Positions 40,268-64,000 of a stretch of DNA of 64,000 nt are shown one piece after another. A program made the position numbers and the translations under genes. Below the pieces are notes generated by a model. The model was not told the origin of the DNA. It worked only from the letters and a program-made list of their open reading frames with translations, and ran no database searches. Location of the stretch: assembly GCA_016201505.1 (NCBI GenBank), contig JACQCQ010000002.1, positions 12,750-76,749 of the forward strand. Reading direction: 5' to 3'. This DNA comes from Candidatus Sungiibacteriota bacterium. Its GTDB lineage: Bacteria > Patescibacteriota > Minisyncoccia > Sungbacterales > JACQCQ01. Numbering within the stretch: position 1 is the stretch's first letter; the number at the start of each line of letters is the position of its first letter.

Positions 40268-42529
40268 ATGAATACTAGAGCCACAATTTACGTATTTTCA
40301 ACTGCCTTTTGGCCGCTCGTCGGCGGAGCTGAAATCGCAGCCGAAGAGGTCATTAGACGACTCGAAGACTCGTTTGATTTTGTCGTGATTACGGGCCGCC
40401 TGAAAAAAAATTTAAAAAAAGAAGAAGTGCGTGGCGGCTGCACCATTCTTCGCATCGGCTTCGGCAATGCCTTCGATAAAATTTTACTTCCCGTTCTAGG
40501 ACCTTTCATCGTCCATCAAACGGACAAAAAGCGTCCCGCCCAACTTTTTTGGCCGGTGATGGTGTCATTTGCCTCGGGCATTCCTTACATTTTTAATATT
40601 TTATTTAAACGTCATATTCCCATTGTTTTGACGCTCCAGGAAGGCGATCCCGAATCACACCTGCGACATTCTCGAGGCGGGCTCATCGGGCTGGCCTGGC
40701 GTATGGCGCTTCGGCGATCATCAGCGGTGACGGCCATCAGTTCATATCTGGCGAGGCTGGCCAAAGGCTTCGGCTACCAAAAAAATGTCCAGCTCATCTC
40801 AAACGGCGTGGATCTGGCGTTGTTTGAGAAGAAATTTTCCACCGTTGAGAATGATGAATTACGAACCTCACTGGAGATACCCGAAGGCGCCAAAATTATT
40901 GTTACGACTTCTCGCTTGGTCAAGAAAAATGGCATTGATATTCTGATTCGGGCTTTTCTGGCTTTGCCCCAAGATCTTAAAGGACAAGCCTATCTTTTGA
41001 TTTTAGGCGACGGTGCTGAAAAAGAGAGTTTAAAGAGACTGGCAACTAACAAACGAATTCTTTTTCTCGGCTCTAGGCCGTATCACGATCTGCCACGGTA
41101 TTTAGCCATTGCCGACGTATTTGTACGTCCCTCGCGCTCCGAAGGCATGGGCAATTCATTTATTGAAGCCATGGCGGCCGGTGTGCCCATCATTGGAACG
41201 CCGGTCGGCGGTATCCCCGAGTTTTTAGTTGATGGGGAGACTGGTCTTTTGGCCGAGCCTGAAAATCCAAACTCAACGGCAGCTGCCATCGGGCGAATTT
41301 TAACTGACACCCGGCTGCGGAATTTGCTTATCGAAGCGGGCAAGAAAAAGGCCCAAGAATATAATTGGCACGATATTAGCGAAAAATACGGGGCAGTGTT
41401 CCTGGCAGAAATGAATAAAAAAAGATCAGTTCTGATTGCAACAGGCATCTTCCCGCCGGCAATCGGCGGGCCGGCGCTGTATGCGTTAGCACTGGCCGAC
41501 TATTTTAAACAGAAAGGCTGGCAGGTCTCGATACTTACCTATGCTCATGGTGATCCAACTGCAGGAGTTCATCGCGTCTCCCTGGAGATCCCAAGCGGCG
41601 TGCGGCATAGCCTGACATTTTTAAAAGCCATCAATCTCGTTTTTAAAGCGGATGCCGTTTTACTGCTGGATCATGCAAGCCTGGGATTTCCTGTCGCTAT
41701 CGCAAGCCGCATTTTGGGAAAACGCTATATCGTCCGCGTGGGCGGTGATTTTCTTTGGGAGGGATTTGTGATGAGCCGCCGAGCGGAGCTTTCCCTCCCG
41801 GATTTCTATCAACGGGCGCCGGATTTATCCTTCAAGGAGCGAATTATTTTTCAGGCGGTGCGTTATACTCTGCAGCATGCCGCAACAGTTGCTTTTAATA
41901 CCGAATGGCAAAAAGATATTTTTATTCGAGCTTATGGCTTAGACCCAACTAAAGTAACAGTCGTGCAAAACGTCTGCCTGGCTCGCCAGGGTGCGGCCCA
42001 AGAGTCAGAGAGAGAATACAGCCGCTTTTTATATGTTGGCCGATTTTTGTTTTTAAAGAATCTCAAAAGAACCATACGTTCATTTATCACAGCGCAAAAA
42101 AAAATGAACAGGCCGTTTATGTTTGAAATCATCGGCGAAGGCCCCGAGGAGGAAGCGCTGAAAACGTTCGTCAAAACTTTACATACCGATCGGGTGGTCT
42201 TTCATGCCTCGATGGCCCAAAAAGATATGTTTGAGAGGCTTGAATCCGCCCGCGCCGCCGCCGTCGCGTCATATTCCGATGTAGCCCCGAACATTATTAC
42301 CGAGTCTTTGGCGCTTGGCACACCGGCCATTCTGACCAAGTATTCAGGCCTGGAAAAGGCGAGAGCAGACGGCGTTTTGCGTGTCGATCCGCTTGATGAA
42401 TCATCCATTGAGGCGGCATTTTTGCGTATGATGGATGACGGCCAGTATGCGGATCTGCGAAAAGCTGTCGCAGTGTCGTCTCCAAGATCTTGGAGCGACG
42501 TGGCAAAAGAGTATGCAGTGCTGCTTTAG
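40268..42529 (+). CDS. Tandem two-module glycosyltransferase (GT4 + GT4)
   Basis: Two Rossmann GT-B halves. EGMGNSFIEAMAAGVPIIGT-type GT4 signature in the first module and a second GT4-like module C-terminally. 753 aa. Confidence 0.75.
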   Translation: MNTRATIYVFSTAFWPLVGGAEIAAEEVIRRLEDSFDFVVITGRLKKNLKKEEVRGGCTILRIGFGNAFDKILLPVLGPFIVHQTDKKRPAQLFWPVMVSFASGIPYIFNILFKRHIPIVLTLQEGDPESHLRHSRGGLIGLAWRMALRRSSAVTAISSYLARLAKGFGYQKNVQLISNGVDLALFEKKFSTVENDELRTSLEIPEGAKIIVTTSRLVKKNGIDILIRAFLALPQDLKGQAYLLILGDGAEKESLKRLATNKRILFLGSRPYHDLPRYLAIADVFVRPSRSEGMGNSFIEAMAAGVPIIGTPVGGIPEFLVDGETGLLAEPENPNSTAAAIGRILTDTRLRNLLIEAGKKKAQEYNWHDISEKYGAVFLAEMNKKRSVLIATGIFPPAIGGPALYALALADYFKQKGWQVSILTYAHGDPTAGVHRVSLEIPSGVRHSLTFLKAINLVFKADAVLLLDHASLGFPVAIASRILGKRYIVRVGGDFLWEGFVMSRRAELSLPDFYQRAPDLSFKERIIFQAVRYTLQHAATVAFNTEWQKDIFIRAYGLDPTKVTVVQNVCLARQGAAQESEREYSRFLYVGRFLFLKNLKRTIRSFITAQKKMNRPFMFEIIGEGPEEEALKTFVKTLHTDRVVFHASMAQKDMFERLESARAAAVASYSDVAPNIITESLALGTPAILTKYSGLEKARADGVLRVDPLDESSIEAAFLRMMDDGQYADLRKAVAVSSPRSWSDVAKEYAVLL

Positions 42530-44308
42530 CTAGTTAATTTTCTTGAAGCGCACGAGATAGGCCGTCGCCAGCCACTTAAGTTCATTGCGTTCGTTACGTT
42601 TGAGCCGGTCTGCGATTATATTTGTGAGTCCGGGCAAAAGTTTATCTAGCGGGAAGGGTAAGATCCTAAAGTTATATCCGACCAGATCTTGAATTTCAAA
42701 GTTAGTCGATGCGGCGAGTCGCCGTATTTCTTTTTCTTTGTATTCTCGGTGCGTTAGGGGGTGTACTTCTTTGCCTAAAAGTCGTTTCAGCCCGCGCCAG
42801 GTGAAGCCAAAAATAAAAACCAGAATTCGATTCCAAACGCGCCAGGGGCTCCAATAATTGGGGAATGAGATGATAGCTTGGCCGTTGATATCGAGTACGC
42901 GATGTAGCTCCCGCATGGCACTCGCATCCTCCTTTAAATATTCGAGCACGCCAAGCGCCGTTGCCATATTAAATGCATTGGCGGAAAATCGCAGATGCTG
43001 AATATCGCCGACTTCAGCCGCAAGCCTGGGGCTTTGGAAACGTTTCTTTAAAAGTTCGGTCATGCCGGGGGCTAAGTCAACTGCAGTCACTGAAGCTTTC
43101 TGGTCGAGCAATTCTCCTATGATGACGCCGGGGCCGGACCCAACATCGAGAACGCGTTTTCCCCGCGTGTTTCCGAGCATCTGGAGCGTGAGACGTTTCC
43201 GCTCGCGAAATGAATAGCCTTCGGGCGTAGCACGGCTATATTCTTTCAGATATGGGTCAGCCGTTTCATGGAAAAATTCTTCCGGTCGCTTATGCTCGGC
43301 GCGAAAGATATTGACGAGGTTAACCAGTCTCGCTCGGAGGCCGCTCGCGGTCAGCCGGAAAAAGCGCATGTCATCAGTCGCATCCATGGTAATTCGTTTG
43401 ATCGCGTATGGATCGTCAATAGTATTAAATGATCCCGGGACAGTCGTGAGTCCATAATGAAGTCCTGCCGCCTTAAGAGTTTCGATAATTGAGACCGTGA
43501 TATCGCGCGGCTGGCCATTGGGGTAGGCGAATACGGGAATATACTGGCTGCATTTTTGTTTGATGATGTCATTTGATTCATTAATTTCAATACGCGCTTC
43601 ATCTGGCGAGATGTGTGATAAAATCGGGTGAGTTTTGGTGTGCGGGGCAAAATGTATCAGACCTGAGGCCTCCATTTCGCGTATGTAGTCCCAGGCCAGT
43701 CCTTCGTATGGCGAACCCTCCAGTCTAAGTTTTGTTTCAGACTGATTTTCAACCTCCAAAATTAACTTCTCCTTTTCTTCTCCATTAATTTGTTTGCAGT
43801 ACGTTCTTAGAAAATCATCAGCTTTTTCTTTCTCTTCCCGCGATCTGATGGGGAACCTCCTAGATTTGCCGTCAATGGTTAAATCAATTGTATCTTTTTT
43901 TGCGTGTCCGATGGCATATTCTATTCTATCAACCCAGAGTGGAGACTCGTTCCCAACCAGCGCGGTTGTAAGAAATACGGTTGCGGGAGTGTTAAGTCGC
44001 TTTAAGATAGGAAAAGCCTCGGTGTAATTATTTACATACCCGTCGTCGAACGTAATGGCCAGCCGACGGCCGGGATCCGCCGTTTCCAGCAGGGAGTTTA
44101 ACGGTACAATGGTATAAAAGCGCCAAAGCCAGCGAAGCTGATTCTCAAAATTCCTGGGCTGGATAAATTTTTTCCGGTAGTTAAAAATGCCTGACCCCGT
44201 ATCCGAGGAAACACCGTGATAGACCAAAATTGTGCGGCTGCCGGCCGCGGCGAGAGCCCAGCGCCAAAAACCCAGGAAATCCAGCAGGAAAAAGGCGATT
44301 TTTTTCAT
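42530..44308 (-). CDS. Bifunctional polysaccharide deacetylase (CE4/NodB) and class I SAM-methyltransferase
   Basis: N-terminal ITFDDGYVNNYTEAFPIL...HTKTHPIL (NodB motifs). C-terminal VLDVGSGPGVIIGELL...VTAVDLAP SAM-binding motif. Confidence 0.75.
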   Translation of the reverse strand: MKKIAFFLLDFLGFWRWALAAAGSRTILVYHGVSSDTGSGIFNYRKKFIQPRNFENQLRWLWRFYTIVPLNSLLETADPGRRLAITFDDGYVNNYTEAFPILKRLNTPATVFLTTALVGNESPLWVDRIEYAIGHAKKDTIDLTIDGKSRRFPIRSREEKEKADDFLRTYCKQINGEEKEKLILEVENQSETKLRLEGSPYEGLAWDYIREMEASGLIHFAPHTKTHPILSHISPDEARIEINESNDIIKQKCSQYIPVFAYPNGQPRDITVSIIETLKAAGLHYGLTTVPGSFNTIDDPYAIKRITMDATDDMRFFRLTASGLRARLVNLVNIFRAEHKRPEEFFHETADPYLKEYSRATPEGYSFRERKRLTLQMLGNTRGKRVLDVGSGPGVIIGELLDQKASVTAVDLAPGMTELLKKRFQSPRLAAEVGDIQHLRFSANAFNMATALGVLEYLKEDASAMRELHRVLDINGQAIISFPNYWSPWRVWNRILVFIFGFTWRGLKRLLGKEVHPLTHREYKEKEIRRLAASTNFEIQDLVGYNFRILPFPLDKLLPGLTNIIADRLKRNERNELKWLATAYLVRFKKIN

Positions 44309-44310: not shown

Positions 44311-45417
44311 ATGCATCATAGCAACGCGCTACTTACCGGTCAAAAGAAAAATGTTTTATCCATCGGCACCGATGAGAAAATTTTTGATCCCGCTTCCTCT
44401 GTGCGCCGCCGCGTCAGGCGCTACGCCCAAGGATTTAATTCATTTCATATAATCTGCAAGACGAGAAAAAAGTTTCCGGTGGAGAAATTCGAAAATATTA
44501 CGCTTTATTCGGTCAGTCCCCGATTCCGTCCTATGTTTTTTGGGCAGATGTATGCGGTGGGAAAAGGTATTCTTCGGTCGTCTTCACAGTGGGTCATAAC
44601 CGCCGAGGATCCCTTCGAGACCGGTCTTGCCGGCTGGCTGCTCGCGCAGAAATTTGGCATTCACCTCCAGGTTCAAGTCCATACTGATATTTTCTCGCCC
44701 TATTTCCGTCGACATTCTTTGGCTAATTATATTCGTTATCTCATAGCCCTTTTCGTCCTACCGCGAGCCAACTGTATTCGAGTCGTTTCGGCCCGCATTG
44801 GGAATAGCCTCGAGGCTATCGGGATTTCACCTCGAAAGATCACCATTTTACCGATTTGGAATGTTTTCTCGTCTGAATTTCCTCATAAAAAAGTTACGGA
44901 TGATATTTTTACGGTTTTATTTGTCGGCCGTCTCGAAAAAGAAAAAGGTGGAGAGGTGGCGCTCGAAGCCTTCAATCATTTTCTTAGTCTCGGCGGGAAA
45001 GGGAAGCTCATATTCGTTGGCGCGGGTGGGGAGGAGGAATACTTACGGGAAAAAGCCAAGTCTTTGTCCACTTCGGTCCAATTTGCCGGCTGGCAATATG
45101 ATGTTCTGCCGTACTATTTAAAAGCCGATGCGCTGTTATCTACTTCTTTCTACGACGGTTGGGGAATGGCTGCGGCCGACGCCGTTTCACTCGGCGTGCC
45201 AGTCGTTATGACGGACGTCGGCCTGGCGGGGGAGGCCGTGATTGATGGCGTAAATGGGTTCGTGCGGCCGGTCGGGGACATTACAGGTCTTGGTGAGGCA
45301 CTTTTTCGCATATACCAAGACCCTAAGATTCTTCCCATGAATCATTCAAAAATTTCTTCGATTCAATCTTTTGAGGAATATGCCGCCCAATACCAAGAAC
45401 TTCTTCGCTCCAGCTAG
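44311..45417 (+). CDS. GT4-family glycosyltransferase
   Basis: C-terminal DGWGMAAADAVSLGVPVVMTDVGLAGE GT4 signature. ATG at 44311 avoids overlap with the convergent gene. Confidence 0.75.
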   Translation: MHHSNALLTGQKKNVLSIGTDEKIFDPASSVRRRVRRYAQGFNSFHIICKTRKKFPVEKFENITLYSVSPRFRPMFFGQMYAVGKGILRSSSQWVITAEDPFETGLAGWLLAQKFGIHLQVQVHTDIFSPYFRRHSLANYIRYLIALFVLPRANCIRVVSARIGNSLEAIGISPRKITILPIWNVFSSEFPHKKVTDDIFTVLFVGRLEKEKGGEVALEAFNHFLSLGGKGKLIFVGAGGEEEYLREKAKSLSTSVQFAGWQYDVLPYYLKADALLSTSFYDGWGMAAADAVSLGVPVVMTDVGLAGEAVIDGVNGFVRPVGDITGLGEALFRIYQDPKILPMNHSKISSIQSFEEYAAQYQELLRSS

Positions 45418-47270
45418 TGGTTGAAGGCGTAGAAGTCGTAGAAGCGCTGGATTAAATCATCCAAGTTATGTCGTTTTACTACCTCCTCGCGCAAGGCAAG
45501 GTTCTTTTTGCCCGGACGCTGCGAAAATTCCTCGATTTTTCGAGCCAGATGTTCCAATGAGAGCGATTCGATGAAATTTTCACCTGGGACGAGCGGCTTA
45601 AAAGTTCCGTTGCTCGTCAATACATTCAGCCCGCAGGCCATGGCTTCGAGCACGACTTTATCGATACCGGTTTTGCCTGCCAGGTTTAAAAATAAATCAT
45701 GTGAGTTGTAGATTTTTGGCATATCGAAGTTCTCGGCCCGGCCTTTTAGGAAAATCCTATCTTCTAATTGGTTATCTTGAATGTATTGCTTAATGCGGCC
45801 GTAATACTCCCAGTCTTTATCGAGTGCCGGCAGGCTGTAGATATCAAGGAGAACACGTACCCCTTTATCTTTTAGCGCTTTTACCGCTTGGCACATGAGC
45901 ATCTGATTTTTGGTTTCAGTAATGCGGCCCAATGAAAGAAGTCGGAATGTTTTATCACGCGCGATTTCATCCATGGGCCGGTAGAAGTTCGTATCAATGC
46001 CGTGGCCGGTTGCCACCCGATTTTTCGTCTTATAAGGGAAGGTATCGTATGAGGCGGTCAGCACCGCATCCACCAGATGTGCCGCCAGTCTTGCATCCCA
46101 ATTGACGGTCCGATGGTTATACCAAAGCGCCTTTTTCTTGCCGAACAAGATGTAAAGCGGCCAGCCTAAAATGGCATAAATTTGATTCATGTGGATGAAG
46201 ACACCATCAACTTGGGGCAAGAACCGCAGAAGATAGCGGTAAAAATTAAAAAGTCGTGCAATTTTCAGATTACCGAGCTCTTTGCCTAGACTTACCACCT
46301 CAACATTTTTGGGCAACGGGTCGTATCTGCCTTCCTCGAGGCAAATCACCTTGACTTCGGCAAAATATTTGGCGAAGGTATTGATCCAGCGGATAAAAAA
46401 CCACAGATCAAAATCAGCCTCGCTGACTTTCTGCGTTAAAATCAAAATTGAAAGCGCCGGTTTATCGGGCGTCATGAAAAGTTTTTTGTATTTGGCATTT
46501 TCTCGAACGAGAAACGGAAAGAAATCGCGCTCGGGCATGACCTCTTTGGATAAATGGGCCAGCGCCATGGCATCTTTCGGCAAGCATTTCCCGCCAAAGC
46601 CCATCAGGCTGTCATTGCAGTCGAGATAATGATCCTCAATATTATAGCGCTTCACCGCGGCATTTTTTACCTTCTCGTATGAAATGCCGAGTTTTCGCAT
46701 GAGCTCGTAAAATTCAGTTGAGAATAAGACCCGTGTGGCATTAAAACTGTTGGTAAAATATTTTACAGCTTCGGCCTCTTTGGGGGAGAGCCAAACGATG
46801 TCTTTGGCAACACCTCGATGAATACTCTCGAGAAGTTCTGCATCCGCCTGATTATATGCGCCGATAACGCAAAGATCCTGATGTTTTAAAAAGTCTTCTT
46901 GGGCGTATTTTTCGCGTAAGAACTCGGGATTATGCGCGAGTCTCAACTCTGGAAACTTATCATGCAGGGTATCAGTCGTTCCCGGAATGATAGTTGACTT
47001 GATGGTTATAAGTCCCCTGAAATTATGTCTTTCGAGAGTAGCCAGGGTTTCCTCGATGATGCCAGCGTCACAGCTTCCATCAGGCCGAGATGGCGTCGGG
47101 AGTGAAATAAAAATAATTTCCCGGTCCAGCAAATTTTCTAGTCTCTGTTCGGGGTACTTACTATCAAACCCCCTCATGTCGTGGCCGAGACTCGCAAGCG
47201 CCGAAAATACGGCGCCGCCGACCGCACCCAGACCAATGACTCCGATCTTTCGTTTTTCAAACTTCTGCAT
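45414..47270 (-). CDS. Fusion of a UDP-sugar 6-dehydrogenase-like N-terminal module (NAD-binding and central domains) with a C-terminal GT4 glycosyltransferase
   Basis: N-terminal KIGVIGLGAVGGAV Rossmann fold and ...GFGGKCLPKDAMAL (catalytic Cys region of Ugd/GMD dehydrogenases). C-terminal GT4 EAMACGLNVLTSN. Confidence 0.65.
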   Translation of the reverse strand: MQKFEKRKIGVIGLGAVGGAVFSALASLGHDMRGFDSKYPEQRLENLLDREIIFISLPTPSRPDGSCDAGIIEETLATLERHNFRGLITIKSTIIPGTTDTLHDKFPELRLAHNPEFLREKYAQEDFLKHQDLCVIGAYNQADAELLESIHRGVAKDIVWLSPKEAEAVKYFTNSFNATRVLFSTEFYELMRKLGISYEKVKNAAVKRYNIEDHYLDCNDSLMGFGGKCLPKDAMALAHLSKEVMPERDFFPFLVRENAKYKKLFMTPDKPALSILILTQKVSEADFDLWFFIRWINTFAKYFAEVKVICLEEGRYDPLPKNVEVVSLGKELGNLKIARLFNFYRYLLRFLPQVDGVFIHMNQIYAILGWPLYILFGKKKALWYNHRTVNWDARLAAHLVDAVLTASYDTFPYKTKNRVATGHGIDTNFYRPMDEIARDKTFRLLSLGRITETKNQMLMCQAVKALKDKGVRVLLDIYSLPALDKDWEYYGRIKQYIQDNQLEDRIFLKGRAENFDMPKIYNSHDLFLNLAGKTGIDKVVLEAMACGLNVLTSNGTFKPLVPGENFIESLSLEHLARKIEEFSQRPGKKNLALREEVVKRHNLDDLIQRFYDFYAFNH

Positions 47271-47400: not shown

Positions 47401-48219
47401 ATGGGCAAAGGGATTTTTGCGAATAGGTTAAAACAAGCTATCCGACTATTCACGCTCGGATTTTTAAGTCTATGCTGCCGGCTGGTCTCTCCATGGCTTT
47501 CTCGTCCTGAAGTTTTAGTTCTGGTGTATCACTCGGTCCGGGATGATGATTGGTTTTATTCCGTCTCCCCGGCTGATTTTCAACGCCAAATCAAATATAT
47601 CAAAGAACAGTATCATCCGGTCTCACTCGCCGATGTCTGCCAATATGCCAAAGGAATAAAATTGCTTGCTCATCGCTCCATAGCAGTTACCTTTGATGAT
47701 GGTTATGAAGACTTCAAAACCAATGCCCTGCCAATTTTGGAGATGTATCAAATACCAGTGACATTATTTGTTTCGGCTGGAGTCGTTGATGCTAAAGACT
47801 TAGGAACAAACCTGCCGACCCTGCAGGGCGTCGCCTTAAAAGAAATTTCTGCTCATCCGCTTGTCAAAATCGGCAGCCACGCCATGACGCACAGAAAATT
47901 AACCAGGCTTTCAGCCGAGAATCAAAAAGAAGAAGTCATAAAATCAAAGAGACTGCTTGAGGCTATGCTGGAAATTCCCGTCCATTTTTTTGCCTATCCA
48001 AAGGGAAATTTCAGCACTGGCACGCGAAATATCATAAAAGATGCCGGATATCGTGGAGCAGTGACGGTAATTCAAACAACCATAAAACCAGGCAATGATC
48101 CCTATCTTCTGCCGCGTATCCAAATCGATCGGTCGATCGGATTTTCTGAATTTGTTTTGCGGCTGACTCGGGTCGCTGATTGGTATTACGCGCTATGGTG
48201 TTTGATCATCCATGGATAA
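47401..48219 (+). CDS. Polysaccharide deacetylase (CE4/NodB family)
   Basis: AVTFDDGYEDFKTNALPIL and GSHAMTH motifs. Confidence 0.8.
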   Translation: MGKGIFANRLKQAIRLFTLGFLSLCCRLVSPWLSRPEVLVLVYHSVRDDDWFYSVSPADFQRQIKYIKEQYHPVSLADVCQYAKGIKLLAHRSIAVTFDDGYEDFKTNALPILEMYQIPVTLFVSAGVVDAKDLGTNLPTLQGVALKEISAHPLVKIGSHAMTHRKLTRLSAENQKEEVIKSKRLLEAMLEIPVHFFAYPKGNFSTGTRNIIKDAGYRGAVTVIQTTIKPGNDPYLLPRIQIDRSIGFSEFVLRLTRVADWYYALWCLIIHG

Positions 48220-56598: not shown

Positions 56599-58041
56599 AT
56601 GAGTTCATTCATGCGTCAGTACCGGTTTATTGTGGCGATATGTTTGGTGGGCTTCATATTGCGTTTGGGGCTGTTCCTGGTTTTTTTGCATCAGGGCGGG
56701 GAAGAAAATTTACTCGTGGTTGACGCCGGCCAGTATTTTCAAATAGCGAAAAATCTTTTGGCAGGCAACGGCTTTTCCATGTCATATGCGCCGCCCTATT
56801 TGATTGACGGGGTGCGGACGCCTCTTTATCCTCTCTGGCTCGCCTTCTTTTATGGGTTGACGCATCACATCTGGCCGGCAGTTCTGGTTCAAATTATTTT
56901 AAACAGCCTTCTGCCATTTTTTGTCTACTCAATTGGAAAACGATTTATAAAAGACAAAAGAGTATTGTTTCTGGCACTCACGCTTACGGCGCTTGAGCCG
57001 AATCTGGTGTATTACACGAGCGTAGTCGGAACCGAAGGCTTATTTATTCCTTTATTTACGATCAACCTTTGGTTTTTGATGCGCTGCCTTGACGGAGGCC
57101 GTACACTAAGAAATGCTCTATACGCGGGCGCTTTTCTCAGTCTGGCAACACTTACGCGGCCCATTAGTCAATTCTTCTTCATTATCGGCGGACTTTTTTT
57201 ATTTTTCGTCACTCGCTATCTGCATCAGAATTGGCGGCGAGCGATTATGATCTCGCTCGCCTATGTCGTAATTTTTCTTTTGGTTATCAGTCCCTGGGTG
57301 TTAAGAAATTGGATTGAATTTAAATCAGTCTCTCTTTCTTCATTTACCTGGCTCAACTTCTACTCGCGTACCGCCTCCTCCGTGGTTGCGCTCCGCGATC
57401 ATAAGACCTATGGCGAGGCTTACCAGGAATTGTATGATGACTTACTTCGCGCGGGGATCATCAAAAATACCTATGATGAAAAGGAGCTGATCAAATTAAA
57501 CAGCTTCTCCGTCCAACCCGAATTGCGTCGGAGGGCCATCGACATCATAAAATCCGACCCCTCGGCAGTGCCAAAGATTTACGCTGTGACATTTTTCAAC
57601 GTTTTAACCCAAGACAACACCTATCTTGTGTTGCATCAGCTGGGAATTCTGCCAGGCGTTTCAGGGTCGGTTTCGCCCTCTCTGCTTCTTTTCCAGCGGG
57701 GGATTAAACCGGCATTGGCCACAGTTATAACGTTGGCTAGAAATCCTGTCTATGTTGTTCTCTATTCAGGTCGAGCAATTTGGTTTTTGATTACTCTACT
57801 GGCGCTCCTCGGTATTGCGGCCTCTCTAAGAAATGCGGACTGGCGCGTGCGATCCGTTGCAACTCTGCTAGCCGTTACATTACTGTACTTTTTTATTCTT
57901 GCGCTGCCCGCAACGGCTTCAGTTGATGCGCGACTCCGTGTTCCCACCGAAGCTTTTGAGATGATCTTTATATCTCTTGGCTTTTTCACGTCTGCTCGAT
58001 ATCTTAAAAAGGGAATAATGTATGAGCCGGAACATTTCTAA
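56599..58041 (+). CDS. Polytopic GT-C-fold membrane glycosyltransferase (ArnT/PMT_2-like), paralog A
   Basis: Multi-TM protein. N-terminal block AGNGFSMSYAPPYLIDGVRTPLYPLWLAFFYGLTHHIWPAVLVQ is shared with the next gene. Confidence 0.6.
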   Translation: MSSFMRQYRFIVAICLVGFILRLGLFLVFLHQGGEENLLVVDAGQYFQIAKNLLAGNGFSMSYAPPYLIDGVRTPLYPLWLAFFYGLTHHIWPAVLVQIILNSLLPFFVYSIGKRFIKDKRVLFLALTLTALEPNLVYYTSVVGTEGLFIPLFTINLWFLMRCLDGGRTLRNALYAGAFLSLATLTRPISQFFFIIGGLFLFFVTRYLHQNWRRAIMISLAYVVIFLLVISPWVLRNWIEFKSVSLSSFTWLNFYSRTASSVVALRDHKTYGEAYQELYDDLLRAGIIKNTYDEKELIKLNSFSVQPELRRRAIDIIKSDPSAVPKIYAVTFFNVLTQDNTYLVLHQLGILPGVSGSVSPSLLLFQRGIKPALATVITLARNPVYVVLYSGRAIWFLITLLALLGIAASLRNADWRVRSVATLLAVTLLYFFILALPATASVDARLRVPTEAFEMIFISLGFFTSARYLKKGIMYEPEHF

Positions 58042-59437
58042 ACCTCTTGTATACATTTATATAATTTCCCTAATCCTGCATCTTGCGGTATTTTCATTTT
58101 TCTTATTAAAACAAGGAGAAATCGGAGGACTCTTTGTGGTTGACGCCTCGGATTATGTCGGTGAGGCAAAAAATATCGCCGATGGCCATGGATTCTCGGT
58201 TACGCCGGAGGCGCCGTATATTCCCAATGCCACAATCGGACCTCTCTATCCTCTATATCTTTCAATTTTCTATCGATTTACGGGCCACTTTTGGCCGGCA
58301 GTACTTGTGCAGAATATTATTGCGAGCTTTATCCCTATTCTTGTTTTTCTTATCGGTTCTTATTTTATTTTAGACAGGCGGATTCTTTGGGGCGCGGCAT
58401 TATTTTCGGCGATCGAGCCGAATCTCCTGTATTATACCAGTGTCGTGGCGAGCGAAGGGGTTTTTATTGTGCTGCTACTTCTTTCAATGCTCGCCTTCAT
58501 TCGATTTTTGAAAACCGATAAAAAAAGCTGGCTTATCGTGAGCGCCCTCATACTCGGCCTCACGGTGCTCTCGCGCATTGCCATCCAATATCTCGTTGGC
58601 TTTTTGGCTTTTTGGCTTCTCGTTTATTTCATAAAGAAAAAATACAGTACTAAAGTAATTATTCAGAACTTAGCCATTCTCTTACTCGTCTATTTCGCCT
58701 TTATTTCTCCCTGGATGATTCGAAATTGGCGCACGTTTGGACATACGGAACTCGCCACCACGGGCTGGATTGACCTTTATACCCGAACCGGCTCTTCAGT
58801 CCGGGCTTTGGTTGAAGGCACAAGTTACGGAGAAAGTTATCACCGGCAATTGCAGGATTTGGTTGACCAAGGGATTATTAAAGATGCCGATGAGCGGGAA
58901 ATGTACGGCTTTCAATTTCAGCCGTTACTAAAAGCGCAGACGCTCACCCTGTTCCGCGAGCATCCTGAAGAGCTCGTTAAAGTTTCCCTCATTTCATTTA
59001 TTTCTATTCTGACGCAGGACAACACCTATGTCTTCCTTCACCAGGCAGGAGTTTTGCCTGCGGTGCCCGGGAACGTCTCGCCTTCGCTCATCCTCTTTCA
59101 AAAAGGCATTCGCGGAGTTGTGGCAACGATGCTCACTCTCGCGAGAAACCAGGCCTATCTTGTGATTTACGCGGGGCGGATTCTCTGGGCGATTCTTACT
59201 GTTTTGTTTGCCGTCGGTGTCTATGCCCTGTGGAAGGCGAAAGAGAGCCGTGCTTTCATTTCATTTTTAATGCTGGTAATTTTCTACGTCTGGGGGATCT
59301 CAATTCCCTTGACCGCAAGTATCTCGGCTCGCTATCGAACGCCAATTATTCCTATTATGTCGCTTTTTATTGTTGTTGGCGCTTGGTATCTCGCCTATCG
59401 CATATTCTCTCGTTATGTCTCGCCGCGTTCCCAATAA
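58022..59437 (+). CDS. Polytopic GT-C-fold membrane glycosyltransferase (ArnT/PMT_2-like), paralog B
   Basis: ADGHGFSVTPEAPYIPNATIGPLYPLYLSIFYRFTGHFWPAVLVQ is colinear with paralog A throughout. Confidence 0.6.
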   Translation: MSRNISKPLVYIYIISLILHLAVFSFFLLKQGEIGGLFVVDASDYVGEAKNIADGHGFSVTPEAPYIPNATIGPLYPLYLSIFYRFTGHFWPAVLVQNIIASFIPILVFLIGSYFILDRRILWGAALFSAIEPNLLYYTSVVASEGVFIVLLLLSMLAFIRFLKTDKKSWLIVSALILGLTVLSRIAIQYLVGFLAFWLLVYFIKKKYSTKVIIQNLAILLLVYFAFISPWMIRNWRTFGHTELATTGWIDLYTRTGSSVRALVEGTSYGESYHRQLQDLVDQGIIKDADEREMYGFQFQPLLKAQTLTLFREHPEELVKVSLISFISILTQDNTYVFLHQAGVLPAVPGNVSPSLILFQKGIRGVVATMLTLARNQAYLVIYAGRILWAILTVLFAVGVYALWKAKESRAFISFLMLVIFYVWGISIPLTASISARYRTPIIPIMSLFIVVGAWYLAYRIFSRYVSPRSQ

Positions 59438-61019
59438 AAAAATCGTCGTTGTTATGCCGGCCTATCACGCGGTGAGGACCTTAGAGCGGACGTTTAGGGC
59501 TATCCCCAGAGACTGGGTGGATGAAATTATATTGGTAGACGATGCTTCATCAGATGAAACAGCGAACCTTGCCAGATCGCTTGGGATTACGACCATTGTT
59601 CACCAAAAAAATAAAGGCTACGGCGGGAATCAAAAAACCTGCTATCAGGAAGCGCTGGCGCGCGGCGGCAATATTGTCGTCATGGTGCATCCCGATTTTC
59701 AGTATGATCCGAAATATATTCCTCAATTAATTGCGGAAATTGCGAGCGGCAGAGGCGATGCGTGTTTTGGGTCGCGTATGATTTTAGAGGGAGGTGCCAG
59801 AGCCGGCGGCATGCCCTGGTGGAAATTCATCTCTAACATTTTTCTCACCAAGATCGAGAACCTGATTTTAGGTCTTGGTTTGACAGAGTATCATTCTGGT
59901 TTCCGTTCTTATAGCCGTAAGGCCCTCGAGTCTTTACCGATTGAAGCTCTTTCTGATGGATTTATCTTCGATAGCGAGATTATTGTGGGCCTCCGGCTTT
60001 GTGGCTTTGGGATCCGTGAGATCCCCATAGAGACACGTTACTTTAAGGAGGCTTCTATGGTTGGTTTTGCAAAGAGCGTAGAGTACGGCTTCTCTATTTT
60101 GAAGCTTATGCTCGATTTTATTTTATTTCGTGCCGGATTTAGAGCAGATCCGCGTTTTCGCGTGGCACTACCTTTTTGTCCAGTTTGTAAAAGCCAAAGA
60201 ACTTTTCTCACGCACCCGGCCACCATTCTTTCGGTCGCTCATTATACCATCACCGAGGCTGCCAGAAATAAGCACTTCAATATTTTTGTCTGTCGCAATT
60301 GTGGCTCAGGTTTTCAGCCATTTCCTGGCGGGAGGCGAGCACTGCTTGATTTTTATACGATGCAACCAGAAGATACAACCTACTTACAAGAGGAAGCCGG
60401 AAGAAGAAAAAGCTTTGTCCGAGTGCTTCGTCGAATCAACCGTATAACGAAGAAGGGAAAAATTTTAGACATCGGGGCCGGGCCGGGGATTTTTTTAGAT
60501 GAGGCGAGGCTCCGGGGTTGGGAAGTTACCGGCATTGAACTATCAGAAGCTGCAGTCGGTATAGCCAAAAATCGATATGGCATCCGCATTATTGAGGGGG
60601 CTTTGGATGCGTTACATGTTTTCCCCGATCACTCATTTGATGCAATAACTGCTTTTGATGTCATTGAGCATCTCGAGGAGCCAAAAGAATTATTACAAGA
60701 AGCGGCGCGTCTTCTTACGGCTGATGGAATTCTTGTTTTAACTACGCCGAAATTTGATAGCCTTTTATCGCGCGTCTTACGATCCCGCTGGTATGCCATT
60801 CTTCCAGCGCACCTTTTTTACTTTACTAATCGTGGCATCGAACATCTCATAGAAGATTCTCAATTTTATTTAATCAAATCTCACTATTTTAGGCGCTACT
60901 TCTCCCTCTCGTATATTTTCGAGCGTGTTCGAGGCCGCCCGGCGGGGAAAAAAGCCGGGCTCGTTATTCCGCTCCAGCTTTTTGATGAGTTCGAGTTGTA
61001 TCTAAAAAAACACAGCTAG
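59415..61019 (+). CDS. Bifunctional DPM1-like GT2 glycosyltransferase (N) and class I SAM-methyltransferase (C), with a CxxC...CxxC zinc-ribbon-like linker
   Basis: N-terminal KKIVVVMPAYHAVRTLE...LVDDASSDET (GT2). Linker CPVCKSQ...CRNCGSG. C-terminal ILDIGAGPGIFLDEA SAM motif. Confidence 0.7.
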   Translation: MSRRVPNKKIVVVMPAYHAVRTLERTFRAIPRDWVDEIILVDDASSDETANLARSLGITTIVHQKNKGYGGNQKTCYQEALARGGNIVVMVHPDFQYDPKYIPQLIAEIASGRGDACFGSRMILEGGARAGGMPWWKFISNIFLTKIENLILGLGLTEYHSGFRSYSRKALESLPIEALSDGFIFDSEIIVGLRLCGFGIREIPIETRYFKEASMVGFAKSVEYGFSILKLMLDFILFRAGFRADPRFRVALPFCPVCKSQRTFLTHPATILSVAHYTITEAARNKHFNIFVCRNCGSGFQPFPGGRRALLDFYTMQPEDTTYLQEEAGRRKSFVRVLRRINRITKKGKILDIGAGPGIFLDEARLRGWEVTGIELSEAAVGIAKNRYGIRIIEGALDALHVFPDHSFDAITAFDVIEHLEEPKELLQEAARLLTADGILVLTTPKFDSLLSRVLRSRWYAILPAHLFYFTNRGIEHLIEDSQFYLIKSHYFRRYFSLSYIFERVRGRPAGKKAGLVIPLQLFDEFELYLKKHS

Positions 61020-61020
61020 T

Positions 61021-61950
61021 TTATTTCCCCAAAGCAAACCGCTGGGACGGCGTAAGGCGTCTGGCTTCTTCTTCTAGTTTGGGCGAGAGCTTCAAGAGAA
61101 TCGGGCGCGGGGAGGCCTCGCTAAAATAACCGGCGGTAAACATCAGCCGCTCTTTCTCTTTGGCATAGCCTCCGCGATGGAGTCCGCTCGTATCGCAAAA
61201 CACAATCGTTCCCGCGCGTCCCGTGCAGGTCACGACTTCGCTTCGCGGGATGATCTTTTCGATGGCGCCATCCGGTGGATAATAGCCGTGCGGCGGACGC
61301 TGGCGAAAAATACTTCGCCACCTGCCGCCATAATGCGAATCTTTAATGTAGGTAAACGGACCGGTTAGATCATCGACGTCATTTAAATACAAAAAAATCT
61401 TGGTCATCTTTTTGTCTTCCGGATCGCGGTGCCAGCGTTGGGAGTCTTTGGGTGGCGCTTCGTTTCCGACGGGCAATGTGACGTTTAATGAGGTTATGAA
61501 AAACTTCGCGTACATTTCTAAATAGCCGTTGATCGTTGCCAGAATTTTTTCGTTTAACGCCAATTGAAAAAAGGGATTTGCAAGATCAATTTCCGGTAGC
61601 CGATTGAAGAGAGCCAAGAGAAAAGTCTTTTTGGCGCTGGGAACGGCTTTCATTCGTAAATTATTGGCATAGGCCTGGAGTTTAGGCAGCCATTCCGGCC
61701 CAAGCAGAATATCGAGATGTGAAATCGCAATTCCGTTTTGTTTCAGCTCGCTCGCAATTCGTTTTTCCTCCGCCCCCAAAGAGTGCTGGGTCGTATCGCC
61801 TTCGTACATGGCTCTCGATTTTCCATTCAGCCGCCACCAAATCGGCCAGACAGTGCGGACCAGGTAATAGGGCCGCAGCGTAGCGTTTTTAGCCTCAATA
61901 AGGTATGATTTGACGCGATGCGCCATAGATATCGTTACTATAACATACAA
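61021..61950 (-). CDS. PhyH-like Fe(II)/2-oxoglutarate-dependent dioxygenase
   Basis: WHRDPE (HxD) and a downstream GLHRG histidine, about 60 residues apart. Family-typical length. Confidence 0.55.
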   Translation of the reverse strand: MYVIVTISMAHRVKSYLIEAKNATLRPYYLVRTVWPIWWRLNGKSRAMYEGDTTQHSLGAEEKRIASELKQNGIAISHLDILLGPEWLPKLQAYANNLRMKAVPSAKKTFLLALFNRLPEIDLANPFFQLALNEKILATINGYLEMYAKFFITSLNVTLPVGNEAPPKDSQRWHRDPEDKKMTKIFLYLNDVDDLTGPFTYIKDSHYGGRWRSIFRQRPPHGYYPPDGAIEKIIPRSEVVTCTGRAGTIVFCDTSGLHRGGYAKEKERLMFTAGYFSEASPRPILLKLSPKLEEEARRLTPSQRFALGK

Positions 61951-61959
61951 GCTTAGCCC

Positions 61960-62733
61960 ATGAAGAGTATAGCAGAGCAGGTCGCAACTCGGTACATCGG
62001 CGCTGGCCGATACTTTCGCGGTGAATATAAGAAAGACGGATTGGCTGCCATTGTTCTGCTTGGTAAAAAATTCCCGTTTTATAAAAATGTTGTCTACAAG
62101 TTTTATCAGCCCAGAAAATTCCAGCGGTATTTTTTAACTGATGATCAGTTCGGAAAATTCTTAGAGGGGACCATCTTGGATGTGGGGAGCAGGGAAGACA
62201 CGATGAAGAGCGTTTTAAAACGAAACGCGGTTTTGGTGGATAAAAACAATCCCAATTTACTTCCCTTCGACTGGGAAAAGGCAGACCTGCCCTTTCCGGC
62301 GAATTCGTTTGACACGGTCGTTTGTCTTGACACGTTAGAACATATTAACGATTTACATCGTTCATTCTATGATCTGCTCCGCGTATCTAAACATTATGTA
62401 ATTATTTCTCTTCCGAATCCCTGGAGGAAAACATTTAAGCGGATGCTTGGCGGGACATGGGATAAGGGGGACTATGGCCTGCCGCCTGAAAAACCTTTCG
62501 ATCGACATAAATGGTTTTTTAACACTGAAGATATAGAGTATTTTATTTTTTATAACTCCGTTACATCTCCGTATCCGTATGAAATAAGGGAACTTCGTTA
62601 TCACATTCCTGTAACCGTAAGGAAGCATAGAATAATGTATCCGCTAGCGCGCTTGATTCTCCCAGAACGATATATTAAAAATCTTTTCGTCAATACTTTT
62701 TTCTTTGTGATTGAAAAGAAAAACGGAAAATGA
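61960..62733 (+). CDS. Class I SAM-dependent methyltransferase (Methyltransf_11-like)
   Basis: ILDVGSREDT ... FDTVVCLDTLEHI motifs. Confidence 0.55.
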   Translation: MKSIAEQVATRYIGAGRYFRGEYKKDGLAAIVLLGKKFPFYKNVVYKFYQPRKFQRYFLTDDQFGKFLEGTILDVGSREDTMKSVLKRNAVLVDKNNPNLLPFDWEKADLPFPANSFDTVVCLDTLEHINDLHRSFYDLLRVSKHYVIISLPNPWRKTFKRMLGGTWDKGDYGLPPEKPFDRHKWFFNTEDIEYFIFYNSVTSPYPYEIRELRYHIPVTVRKHRIMYPLARLILPERYIKNLFVNTFFFVIEKKNGK

Positions 62734-62754
62734 TGAGTTTGAGTTCTATATATC

Positions 62755-64000
62755 ATGGTTCTGGATAAAAAATCATTTTCCCGAAATGTTGCAGAGGCCT
62801 TCGCCTGGTCTTCCGCCGGATCATGGATCATACGAGTAGTTGGGATTTTCACCACAGTCTTGGTGCTGGCGCAGTTTTCCTTGCGGGATTATGGGACGTA
62901 TCAATTAGTTCTTGCCGCTTGGGGCCTTTTATTTTCGTTTTCGCTTCAGGGAGTTGATCAAATTGTGGTAGCGGAGGGGGCTCGTATCACTGGCAAAGAT
63001 GAATATGCAGCCGTCCTTCTTGGACAGGGTTATTTTCTTTTTAAGTTATTCTCAAGTGCCATATTATTCACTCTGCTGTATCTTGGGGCACATATTCTCT
63101 CAGGTTGGTATAGTCTCGATATTGTTTCTTTACTAAAGGTCCTTTCGCTTTCATTCATCGCAGTTCCATTTGAGCGCTTGATAAATTATCATCTTGCGCG
63201 GCATTTAAAATTTTTCCAGACAAGCCTGTACACCGTCCTCGAGGAGGTTTCAAAATTTGTCCTTATCGCGGTCGTTCTATTATTATTTCACTTCCGCATC
63301 GGAGCTGTTCTTGCGGCAACTGCATTGTCTGCTATTGGGACCATGATCGTATTTATTCCCATAGTACCGCGGAAGTATTTTTATTTTTCACGCCATTCGC
63401 TTTCATCGCTTTTCCATTTAATTATAGTCAGACACGGAAAATGGAATATCTTTCAAAAGTATATTCGCCAAACCGAGAAAAATATCCGTCCCATCTTTGT
63501 TGAGTATTTTATTGGCCGCGAAGGAGTGGCTTTATTTTCGGTTGCGGAAAAGCTTTTTAACACATTTGCTGATCTCTTCCCTATCTCGGATGTACTCACG
63601 CCCATTCTTTCAACCGAGCTTGAAAATCGCGCCCGTTTGCAACGCACGTTAGAACGTGTTTTTAAATATACATTTCCGTTGTTGGCGATAATTTCTACTG
63701 TGGTCGCACTAGTTGCTCCTTTTATACTTGCGTACGCATTTCCTCAGTACATACCGGCATTGTCCCTCTTTAATATTTTGCTGTTTTATATACCCTTTCT
63801 TGGCTTGGGCTATACGCTTACGTCACTTTATTTTTCTCAGCGGGAACAAAAAGAGGCATTTTATTTAATTTTGATACGCTTTGGCTTGTATGTGGTGACC
63901 GCGCCGCTTCTTTTGAAGACGCTTGGTCTTTGGGGAGTTGCCATTGAATATAGTGCCACCCTCATTTTTTTCGATATTCTTCGATATTGGTCCCTGGTTC
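62755..64000 (+). CDS. Wzx/MOP-superfamily polysaccharide-biosynthesis flippase-like membrane protein (3' end beyond window)
   Basis: ATG 62755 with an open frame to the window end (no stop codon seen, checked codon by codon). More than 10 hydrophobic segments. Absent from the ORF track because it is unterminated. Confidence 0.5.
   Translation, partial: MVLDKKSFSRNVAEAFAWSSAGSWIIRVVGIFTTVLVLAQFSLRDYGTYQLVLAAWGLLFSFSLQGVDQIVVAEGARITGKDEYAAVLLGQGYFLFKLFSSAILFTLLYLGAHILSGWYSLDIVSLLKVLSLSFIAVPFERLINYHLARHLKFFQTSLYTVLEEVSKFVLIAVVLLLFHFRIGAVLAATALSAIGTMIVFIPIVPRKYFYFSRHSLSSLFHLIIVRHGKWNIFQKYIRQTEKNIRPIFVEYFIGREGVALFSVAEKLFNTFADLFPISDVLTPILSTELENRARLQRTLERVFKYTFPLLAIISTVVALVAPFILAYAFPQYIPALSLFNILLFYIPFLGLGYTLTSLYFSQREQKEAFYLILIRFGLYVVTAPLLLKTLGLWGVAIEYSATLIFFDILRYWSLV

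Follow-up and report, generated by a model that had tools for sequence, protein, structure and literature searches.

A probable two-tier surface-glycan locus with three compact GT-C enzymes beside coat-protein genes in Candidatus Sungbacteria

We analysed a stretch of 64,000 nucleotides (hereafter the window) from Candidatus Sungbacteria, an uncultured, ultra-small bacterium of groundwater type that belongs to the Parcubacteria in the Candidate Phyla Radiation (CPR), and found that it ends in a genuine surface-glycan cluster of this organism. Judging from its sequence, the locus probably works in two tiers, one in which a glycan would be built in the cytoplasm and one in which lipid-linked sugars would be transferred across the membrane. 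The transmembrane tier is the best-supported part of this explanation. Its candidate transferases, the polytopic proteins G9, G15 and G16, are paralogues in a large uncharacterised family of compact (~460 residues) PMT_2-type GT-C glycosyltransferases.

From 40268 to 64000, all 20 consecutive open reading frames (ORFs), here numbered G1 to G20, carry glycan-related domains in Pfam and NCBIfam scans, and a glycosyltransferase domain was found in none of the ~35 upstream ORFs that were scanned with Pfam. The G+C content of this island (0.41-0.50) lies slightly under that of the upstream DNA (0.45-0.56), and the upstream 30 kb holds housekeeping genes such as GatB, a release factor, alanine racemase, FtsE/X, ClpB and thymidylate synthase with dihydrofolate reductase. 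An earlier reading of the window, made from the sequence only (the sequence-only reading), had drawn up an inventory that we largely recovered: three polytopic paralogues, six S-adenosylmethionine (SAM) methyltransferase domains (G2, G7, G12, G14, G17 and G19), two CE4 domains (G2 and G5), gmd and fcl, a PhyH-like dioxygenase (G18), a small ArnE/F-like protein with four transmembrane (TM) helices (G13), a Wzx-like flippase (G20) and four fusions, namely CE4+methyltransferase (G2), Ugd N-terminal/central part+GT4 (G4), methyltransferase+GT2 (G12) and GT2+methyltransferase (G17). Two of its counts had to be changed: instead of four GT2 enzymes we found three genes (G6, G12 and G17), and the five GT4 enzymes exist as five modules in four genes, G1 being a double GT4. 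The genes G5 to G17 form a tightly packed array of 13 genes on the + strand, with G5 first. The island may extend beyond the window end, directly past which an identical contig (L004, 2787-3793) carries, after Wzx, a holo-ACP synthase gene and a second gene. If part of the island, the holo-ACP synthase gene may indicate a modification that depends on an acyl carrier.

The components of the transmembrane tier include two genes in which a GT2 domain is fused to a methyltransferase domain. G12 (54132-55535; here and below, genes lie on the + strand unless marked otherwise) is a methyltransferase+GT2 fusion with NCBIfam and PDB matches of the polyprenyl-phosphate-hexose synthase type. In NCBIfam, its GT2 part matches AglJ with 102.5 bits across the whole catalytic domain, followed by dolichyl-P-hexose transferase, PgfS and ArnC, and in the PDB it matches the dolichyl-phosphate-mannose synthase (DPMS) of Pyrococcus (5mlz, 1.4e-14), ArnC and GtrB. 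G17 (59415-61019; the listed ORF starts at TTG 59370) has the order GT2+methyltransferase, and its GT2 part matches AglJ (58.5 bits), PpgS (49.6 bits) and dolichyl-P-hexose transferase (49 bits) in NCBIfam and DPMS and ArnC in the PDB. Orthologues of G12 with the same fusion occur in the related loci L001 and L002 at 64-66% identity; those of G17 are 58% identical in L002, 53% in L009 and 70% in L001, the last consisting of the GT2 part only. G13 (55538-55906), a protein of the EamA/SMR type with 122 residues and four TM helices (EamA 30.5 bits), is a candidate flippase for lipid-linked sugars; its best NCBIfam matches, ArnE and ArnF, are weak (E about 1e-6), and it has orthologues in L001 and L009. 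G20 (62749-64000) is a Wzx-type flippase of the MOP type (Polysacc_synt_3 57 bits; MOP flippase and TuaB matches), which is cut by the window end and was completed to its full length of 452 residues from L004.

Among the relatives of G9, G15 and G16, these components are also found in single proteins. Natural GtrA+GT-C fusions are seen in P0007, P0011, P0026 and P0045, a GT-C+GT2 fusion in P0071, and GT2+GT-C fusions in P0139 and in an 822-residue protein of L010. Furthermore, 8 of 98 family members are fused to a SAM methyltransferase and 1 of 98 to a CE4 domain. The GT2 domains fused to or lying beside GT-C relatives are like those of G12 and G17 and unlike that of G6. L007 holds a minimal module of GtrA-GT-C, GT2 and methyltransferase amid housekeeping genes. 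Since synthase-like GT2s occur together with natural fusions of GT-Cs to GtrA, GT2 and methyltransferase domains, we regard a multi-component transmembrane route as well supported. The sequence-only reading had proposed precisely such a route from a DPM1-like GT2, a small flippase and GT-C enzymes, and both the domain similarities and the natural fusions bear it out. The adjacent DPM1-like GT2 and flippase, taken with the GtrA and GT2 fusions of relatives, suggest that the GT-Cs may use a donor linked to polyprenyl phosphate.

The GT-C proteins themselves are G9 (50714-52114), G15 (56599-58041) and G16 (58022-59437, in tandem with G15). G15 and G16 are 39% identical, and G9, the divergent paralogue, is 25% identical to each of them over the full length (E about 1e-24). 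NCBI names G16 a 'glycosyltransferase family 39 protein'; G15 has no Pfam match at all. Sequence and profile searches with the GT-Cs against PDB sequences gave nothing significant, the best match being PIG-M with E=0.1, and a comparison of folds was therefore needed. AlphaFold models of G16 and G9 were built on a 21-sequence alignment and are confident, with a pLDDT of 90.1 and a pTM of 0.91 (G16) and 84.6 and 0.87 (G9). When these predicted structures were compared with the PDB by Foldseek, all matches with E<0.04 for G16 and E<0.9 for G9 were GT-C enzymes or the GT-C-fold subunit PIGU. STT3/AglB/PglB came out on top with E-values from 7e-6 to 3e-4, at a query-normalised TM-score of only about 0.5, followed by ArnT, Pmt1/2/4, PIG-M, ALG3/9/12, AftB and EmbA-C. 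In the 21-sequence alignments, at least 90% of the sequences have Asp in the column of G16 D41, in loop 1 after the first TM helix; in the clade of G9 this Asp is displaced by two residues and lies in a conserved SDGY. Y45, R185, PW..RN and RxR of the G15/G16 pair are conserved as well.

An exhaustive profile search brought up 3,128 cluster representatives with E<=1e-30, rising to 23,400 when matches down to E<=1e-10 are counted, so the family is large and has thousands of metagenomic sequence clusters. The PMT_2 model (PF13231) is matched by 88 of 98 family representatives (E<=1e-3) and the PMT model by 33, and among the individually scanned relatives five lie above the PMT_2 threshold (69.3, 45.4, 44.1, 30.1 and 29.0 bits). 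Relatives of the narrow G15/G16 alignment were found neither among genome contigs nor among metagenome contigs, so this subfamily is seemingly rare outside SRA/ENA assemblies. For PMT (PF02366), G16 reaches 19.4 bits against a cut-off of 22.7, and G9 and G15 have no match; a PMT_4TMC or MIR domain was found by Pfam in none of the three, and loop 1 reads VVDA(G/S) where PMT has DE. The window GT-Cs are thus of the ArnT/PMT type, yet they are neither PMT (GT39) proper nor an oligosaccharyltransferase. Of the O-mannosylation-like or ArnT-like mechanism that had been favoured before, the ArnT/PMT-type GT-C stands, and the features specific to PMT failed.

We considered two other identities for the polytopic proteins. 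First, the top Foldseek matches to STT3/AglB/PglB and the N-x-S/T sequons in U2 and U3, two secreted proteins encoded upstream of the island, could mean that the GT-Cs are PglB/AglB-like oligosaccharyltransferases which N-glycosylate the coat proteins at these sequons. This is very improbable. As the sequence-only reading had stated, there is no WWDxG motif, and neither WWD nor W[WY]D[YWF]G occurs in G9, G15 or G16; the proteins have 466-480 residues and end right after the last TM helix, with no C-terminal soluble domain; in Pfam they lean towards PMT_2/PMT and do not match STT3; and the sequons of U2 do not go beyond what its composition gives. Second, the three could be Wzy/WaaL polymerases or ligases or O-oligosaccharyltransferases of the Wzy_C type, as they are polytopic, share the locus with a Wzx and include one protein, G15, without a Pfam match. 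We give this practically no credence: Wzy_C (PF04932) is absent from the three proteins and from the 98 relatives, G15 is 39% identical to G16, and neither Wzy nor WaaL is among the Foldseek matches listed for the two models. The question of ArnT/PMT against Wzy/WaaL profiles, on which the sequence-only reading had made its case depend, comes out in favour of GT-C, the only class that the models match.

The genes of the cytoplasmic tier were assigned from their domains. G1 (40268-42529, 753 residues) contains two GT-B modules, with two stretches each of Glycos_transf_1 and Glyco_transf_4 in Pfam; a search found 412 homologues of it with E<=1e-30, and those that carry a name belong to Sungbacteria, Giovannonibacteria and other Parcubacteria. 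Two further GT4 genes are G3 (44311-45417; the listed ORF starts at TTG 44230, and ATG 44311 agrees with the orthologues) and G8 (49609-50730), which Pfam identifies and which has orthologues in L008, L002, L009, L010 and L013. The best NCBIfam matches of G1 and G8 are GT4s of polysaccharide and teichuronic-acid synthesis, e.g. TuaC, TuaH and EpsE. In G4 (45414-47270, - strand), Pfam, NCBIfam and a motif search show a GT4 fused to Ugd-like NAD-binding and central domains, a putative dehydrogenase half that keeps the catalytic Cys motif GFGGKCLPKD and lacks the UDP-binding C-terminal domain; its orthologues in L008, L009 and L012 have no more than the GT4 part. G6 (48212-48997; Pfam, NCBIfam) is a GT2 of a different kind from G12 and G17, with GmaR and SunS as its nearest, weakly matching solved relatives, and its pairing with the SAM methyltransferase G7 (48990, a probable start, to 49616; Pfam, NCBIfam) is kept in L008, L002 and L009.

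The tailoring and nucleotide-sugar genes lie among these. G2 (42530-44308, - strand) fuses a CE4 de-N-acetylase (Polysacc_deac_1 80.6 bits, with NCBIfam matches to N-deacetylases of the PgaB/IcaB type) to a SAM methyltransferase (Methyltransf_11/25), and its product is expected in the cytoplasm because it has neither a signal peptide nor a TM helix. G5 (47401-48219) is a second CE4 de-N-acetylase without a signal peptide (Polysacc_deac_1 90.6 bits; IcaB/PgaB/NodB-type matches). The match of gmd (G10, 52122-53177) reaches 514 bits against the equivalog cut-off of 415 (TIGR01472). For fcl (G11, 53182-54135), GDP-L-fucose synthase is the best match over the full length (GDPFucSynFcl), with 294 bits against an equivalog cut-off of 500, and because of this low score a related GDP-6-deoxyhexose is possible as the product. 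Two more SAM methyltransferases are G14 (55911-56597; Pfam, NCBIfam), a paralogue of the methyltransferase domain of G12, and G19 (61960-62733; Pfam), whose L001 orthologue is 58% identical. G18 (61021-61950, - strand) is a PhyH-like 2-oxoglutarate/Fe(II) oxygenase by a weak match (26.8 bits, cut-off 22), with an orthologue of 51% identity in L001. The slot of G18 lies between the GT2+methyltransferase gene and the next methyltransferase gene, and in L002 (11499-12311) it is taken by an unrelated 2OG-FeII_Oxy_3 protein, which resembles prolyl hydroxylases, where the window and L001 have the PhyH-like one. As two unrelated families of 2-oxoglutarate oxygenases share the slot, a hydroxylation step seems to have been kept by non-orthologous replacement.

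Put together, these assignments suggest the following course of events. In the cytoplasm, gmd and fcl would make GDP-L-fucose, the GT4s G1, G3, G4 and G8 and the GT2 G6 would assemble a glycan, or lengthen one, at the inner side of the membrane, and the CE4 domains of G2 and G5 and the methyltransferases G2, G7, G14 and G19 would modify it. On the transmembrane side, the AglJ/DPM1/ArnC-like GT2 domains of G12 and G17 would first charge polyprenyl phosphate with single sugars. Their fused methyltransferases most likely methylate the lipid-linked sugar before it is flipped; SAM is available only in the cytoplasm, and since the methyltransferases are fused to synthases and GT-Cs, we infer that methylation precedes export. 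G13, G20 or both would then move the lipid-linked sugars across the membrane, and finally G9, G15 and G16 would transfer the sugars to an acceptor on the outer face. The product of the locus is most likely part of the coat of the cell, because the locus is inherited together with the upstream genes U2 to U7.

These upstream genes show that the functional unit begins before 40268. U2 (31660-35151) encodes a candidate coat protein of 1163 residues, with a signal peptide, a PG_binding_1 domain and a long body rich in Thr, Ser and Gly. It is followed by genes for three further secreted Ser/Thr-rich proteins, U3 (35386-35922), U4 (35941-36717) and U5 (36796-37944), the last two with PG_binding_1. 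U2 to U5 (31660-37944) have signal peptides and 20-34% Ser+Thr, in agreement with the secreted Ser/Thr-rich neighbours noticed in the sequence-only reading. Next come U6 (37978-38754), a membrane-anchored TPR protein by weak matches whose true start may be ATG 38011, and U7 (38744-40267, probable start ATG 38756), a secreted LTD-PKD protein (LTD 83.8 bits, PKD) with a C-terminal TM anchor. The stop of U7 abuts the start of G1, and U6 and U7 are conserved together with G1. U7 could be a partner that binds the acceptor, or a scaffold. The ORF U1 in front of U2 (31256-31663, 135 residues, rich in Cys, His and Trp, no Pfam match) is probably no gene, and the gap of ~1 kb before U2 may be a long U2 leader. 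On the + strand, 44 nucleotides past the U2 stop, there is a 14-bp GC-rich hairpin with a T-tract (35195-35226), and a promoter-like site lies at 31000-31028. Keeping in mind that the counts of the promoter and terminator scan are overall at chance level, these two signals would make U2 a separately transcribed, strongly terminated and possibly highly expressed structural gene.

Seven related loci, about 165 kb, were compared. In related Parcubacteria loci, the order of coat protein, TPR, LTD-PKD, double GT4 and, further on, GT2/GT-C and Wzx is kept. The upstream part, consisting of a U2-family gene, smaller PG_binding_1 genes, U6, U7, G1 and G3, has the same order in the window, L009, L010, L012 and L013. 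A coat protein lies beside the island in all five testable loci (the sequence of L008 begins with U6 and thus allows no test for U2), and U2 homologues upstream of the same island are 56% (L009, full length), 46% (L012), 38% (L010) and 35% (L013) identical. Likewise, PG_binding_1 proteins like U4 and U5 are found in the same place in L008, L009, L010 and L012, and U6 orthologues are 51% (L008), 47% (L009), 43% (L012) and 27% (L010 and L013) identical. Taken over L008, L009, L010, L012 and L013, the coat-protein, TPR and LTD-PKD genes beside the island have 27-56% protein identity. U7 directly precedes G1 in seven of seven cases (the window, L008, L009, L010, L011, L012 and L013, one of them a Giovannonibacteria contig), and G1 is 38-47% identical across loci. 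What lies in between differs from locus to locus (NUDIX, a true PMT, radical SAM, epimerases), so the linkage to the coat genes is not mere frozen gene order. The link of the island to Ser/Thr-rich surface proteins, read before from the window only, is thus found again in other genomes.

The island itself is conserved in blocks. L008/L001 and L002 share with the window a GT4, a G9-type GT-C, gmd, fcl, methyltransferase+GT2, (SMR), methyltransferase, a G15/G16-type GT-C, GT2(+methyltransferase), oxygenase, methyltransferase and Wzx, with 40-74% identity to the window proteins. As a set, G9, gmd, fcl, G12, G14 and G15/G16 are present in the window, L008/L001 and L002 and missing from L009, which retains a G13-type small protein, a G17-type GT2+methyltransferase, one GT-C and Wzx. 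There appear to be two modules, A, which is tied to GDP-fucose synthesis, and B, which comprises a G17-type GT2, a GT-C and Wzx; in L009, L010 and L013 the genes of B adjoin one another, and in L002 and the window its GT2 is found beside Wzx or close to it. Wzx ends the island in L001, L002, L009, L010 and L013. The middle of the island varies (carbamoyltransferase, nonulosonic-acid genes, NTP-transferases, different methyltransferases), the usual pattern of strain-variable surface glycans. Genes absent from the window are found at 18151-21425 in L001, 15620-21452 in L002 and 11459-13150 in L008; in these related islands NeuB, CTP_transf_3 and DegT for nonulosonic-acid synthesis follow Wzx, and a carbamoyltransferase precedes the G9-type GT-C. 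With such extra genes, the relatives evidently have different glycans.

Several observations weigh against the two-tier explanation. The assignments of G12, G13 and G17 all lie below the curated equivalog cut-offs and are similarities only, and the TM helices with which GtrB and ArnC end are missing from G12 and G17. The window GT-Cs score just below the PMT_2 gathering threshold of 26.1 bits, with 25.5 for G16, 18.2 for G9 and no match for G15. In L009 the synteny extends to the upstream ClpB and helix-turn-helix genes, and simple collinearity of related genomes may therefore account for part of the conserved order. Finally, neither a priming phosphoglycosyltransferase nor an LCP ligase is present in any of the seven loci: Bac_transf, Glycos_transf_4 and Wzy_C are not found in the window, L001, L008, L009, L010, L012 or L013, and L002 has Wzy_C. 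Of a Wzx/Wzy pathway the window contains only Wzx, with no priming phosphoglycosyltransferase and no Wzy. The explanation therefore does not account for what the five GT4 modules do or for the carrier on which they work.

Next, we asked what the acceptor of the sugars may be. The headline of the sequence-only reading, glycosylation of surface proteins, is a plausible one, to which the conserved synteny lends some further weight. The Ser/Thr-rich, peptidoglycan-anchored coat proteins U2 to U5 would be O-glycosylated, either by the GT-Cs, which would add (methylated) sugars outside to Ser/Thr or to a protein-bound glycan in the manner of PMT or AglS, or, in a variant, by the GT4s, which would pre-glycosylate the coat proteins in the cytoplasm like GtfA or SdgA/B. 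We see this as possible, with a chance somewhat short of even. The coat genes stay linked in five of five testable loci although the intervening genes differ, and it points the same way that none of the loci has a priming transferase or an LCP ligase and that only L002 has Wzy_C. Furthermore, 33 of the 98 family representatives give a PMT match as well, protein-glycosylating oligosaccharyltransferase subunits rank first for both predicted structures (at the TM-score of about 0.5 given above), the nearest, weakly matching solved relatives of G6 are the protein and peptide glycosyltransferases GmaR and SunS, and U2 may be separately terminated and highly expressed. In Haloferax, AglD/AglR/AglS adds lipid-carried mannose to the S-layer glycoprotein glycan (PMC3871713). 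On the other hand, the PMT score is below threshold, PMT_4TMC and MIR are missing and loop 1 has DA rather than DE. The density of sequons, which the sequence-only reading had counted in favour of glycosylation, held only for U3, with 9 against ~4 expected; U2, with 25% Ser+Thr, has 18 against ~17 from composition, so that the argument is mostly a composition effect. We found no glycoproteomic data from CPR bacteria in the literature, and nothing specific on CPR glycosylation or S-layer glycoproteins. The proteins beside distant GT-C relatives (L006, L007) are not consistently Ser/Thr-rich and do not help with the acceptor.

A glycopolymer that is not bound to protein, either a secondary wall polysaccharide or a membrane-anchored lipoglycan, has a nearly even chance of being the acceptor. 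In that case the GT4s would build a core on undecaprenyl phosphate primed elsewhere, or on a glycolipid as in mycobacterial phosphatidylinositol mannosides, lipomannan (LM) and lipoarabinomannan (LAM), and the GT-Cs would lengthen or decorate it on the outer side with polyprenyl-P-sugars as donors, in the way known from the decoration of lipoteichoic acid (LTA), wall teichoic acid or the group A carbohydrate or from LM/LAM elongation; the coat proteins would be mere neighbours, both belonging to the envelope. A set of five GT4 modules, one GT2 and one Wzx is typical of a locus that assembles a lipid-linked glycan, the similarity of G1 and G8 to TuaC, TuaH and EpsE fits a polysaccharide or teichuronic acid, the variable middle of the island resembles O-antigen and capsule loci, and L002 has its Wzy_C protein. 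GT-Cs are also known whose acceptors are wall polysaccharides, lipid A or lipoglycans, for instance ArnT and mycobacterial enzymes. PMT_2-type and other GT-Cs act on teichoic acids and wall polysaccharides, and all characterised Gram-positive systems reviewed there act on polymers, including the PMT_2-type GtlB on LTA (PMC8035078). GT4 steps followed by Ppm1 and GT-C are also the logic of mycobacterial lipoglycans (PMC3485146, PMC12041525). What speaks against a glycopolymer is that a priming transferase, LCP ligase or chain-length regulator was not found in the ~165 kb of the seven loci, six of which have no polymerase either, that the link to the coat-protein genes survives rearrangements, and that the coat proteins, as they carry PG_binding_1, need no wall polymer as an anchor. 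In Gram-positive bacteria, S-layer genes also adjoin wall-polymer loci, and an S-layer-like gene beside a glycan locus is compatible with a glycosylated S-layer as well as with a wall polymer that goes with it. Given that the PMT-specific features fail and that the Gram-positive precedents act on polymers, we are cautious about a protein acceptor.

A third and rather unlikely possibility is a pathway in the archaeal style, in which an AglJ-like GT2 would start the glycan on a polyprenyl monophosphate, the GT4s would extend it, methylation would take place on the lipid, Wzx would flip it, and the compact GT-Cs, as a new family whose membrane core is closest to STT3/AglB/PglB, would transfer it, en bloc or one sugar at a time, to the Ser/Thr-rich, peptidoglycan-anchored coat proteins. 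Such an initiation would explain why there is no priming phosphoglycosyltransferase in the seven loci. The donors would then be methylated polyprenyl-phosphate-(deoxy)hexoses, possibly a fucose derivative; to our knowledge, no such donor has been described.

CPR bacteria, or Patescibacteria, have tiny genomes and depend on other cells, and their surface probably decides host contact; we know of almost nothing reported on what covers their cells. Here, a locus of ~24 kb has stayed together with the gene of a candidate coat protein in Sungbacteria and other Parcubacteria and, partly, in Giovannonibacteria. If the methyltransferase fusions act on lipid-linked sugars before export, as the two-tier explanation has it, this would be a simple general answer to the question of how methylated sugars reach extracytoplasmic glycans, and if the coat protein is the acceptor, the locus would represent a new bacterial route of protein glycosylation. 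Either way, it supplies concrete genes for heterologous tests.

Three observations concern other parts of the window. A NifU-like gene (19988-21781, 597 residues) has two LAGLIDADG_3 homing-endonuclease stretches inside NifU_N and is probably an intein-containing NifU. On the - strand, a dihydrofolate reductase with a C-terminal HIT domain overlaps the thymidylate synthase gene (165-1115 and 1112-2044). Tandem DUF4015 paralogues, putatively glycoside-hydrolase-like, lie at 4980-6131 and 6223-7473.

Glycosylation by three or more components across the membrane follows a published logic, which includes Wzx-type flippases for a lipid-linked monosaccharide, GacK and AglR (PMC8035078, PMC11127046, PMC3871713), and PMT_2-type GT-Cs that also act on lipoteichoic acid (PMC8035078). 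In the Gram-positive systems CsbB/GtcA/YfhO, GtlA/GtcA/GtlB and GacI/GacK/GacL, as in the proposed transmembrane tier, a GT-A enzyme makes the polyprenyl-P-sugar, a small or Wzx flippase moves it and a GT-C transfers the sugar; GtlB is a PMT_2-type GT-C and GacK is of the Wzx type like G20 (PMC8035078). The organism of the window, too, is a monoderm with peptidoglycan. Unlike these systems, the window has three paralogous GT-Cs and two donor synthases in one locus, and the synthases are fused to SAM methyltransferases and have no TM helices. Furthermore, its small flippase is of the SMR/EamA type and not GtrA, although relatives do have GtrA fusions, and its GT-Cs form a distinct compact family of ~460 residues without a carbohydrate-binding extension.

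The Arn pathway, which modifies lipid A (ArnC, ArnD, ArnE/F, ArnT), is paralleled by the ArnC-like GT2, the ArnE/F-like SMR-type protein with four TM helices and the ArnT-like GT-C of the window. ArnD, a member of the CE4 family, modifies undecaprenyl-phosphate-4-deoxy-4-formamido-L-arabinose (Und-P-Ara4FN) on the cytoplasmic face, i.e. in its lipid-linked form, and its step is a precedent for tailoring before export by G2, G5 and the fused methyltransferases. On the other hand, in a monoderm host lipid A is not expected, there are no genes for the synthesis of 4-amino-4-deoxy-L-arabinose (L-Ara4N) in the locus, no specific similarity of G5 and G2 to ArnD was seen in NCBIfam, and the tailoring in the window would be methylation.

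The AglJ/AglD/AglR/AglS/AglP proteins, which N-glycosylate the S-layer of Haloferax volcanii, provide a further comparison: AglJ is the best family match of G12, and that pathway has a Dol-P-hexose synthase, the Wzx-like AglR, a Dol-P-mannose-dependent AglS that adds to the glycan of the S-layer glycoprotein, a SAM methyltransferase and a tie to a coat protein (PMC3871713). Here the organism is a bacterium, there is no AglB-type oligosaccharyltransferase (neither WWDxG nor the C-terminal domain), and the scores are far below the equivalog cut-offs. The mycobacterial and corynebacterial systems with Ppm1, the GT-C mannosyltransferases PimE and MptA-C, and Pmt also proceed from cytoplasmic GT4 steps to several outer GT-C steps that use a polyprenyl-P-sugar, and there one donor serves both lipoglycan synthesis and protein O-mannosylation (PMC3485146, PMC12041525, PMC2157549). 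They differ from the window in having GT87/PimE where we find PMT_2-type enzymes; the window has no phosphatidylinositol-related genes, and it has methyltransferase fusions and GDP-fucose genes. Like G12 and G17, the catalytic domain of Ppm1 is without TM helices.

The slg clusters of Geobacillus and Paenibacillus resemble the island in that a glycan locus lies beside an S-layer gene, with a multidomain methyltransferase+GT2 enzyme (the methyltransferase-rhamnosyltransferase WsaE), nucleotide-sugar genes and a methylated deoxyhexose. They have the priming transferase WsaP, an ABC transporter and the Wzy_C-type WsaB, none of which is in the window, and they have no GT-C. Compared with all these systems, what is new here is a system of three GT-Cs and two donor synthases fused to methyltransferases, which is set in a conserved supra-operon of coat-protein and glycan genes of Parcubacteria and has at its centre a compact PMT_2 subfamily that is very large and uncharacterised.

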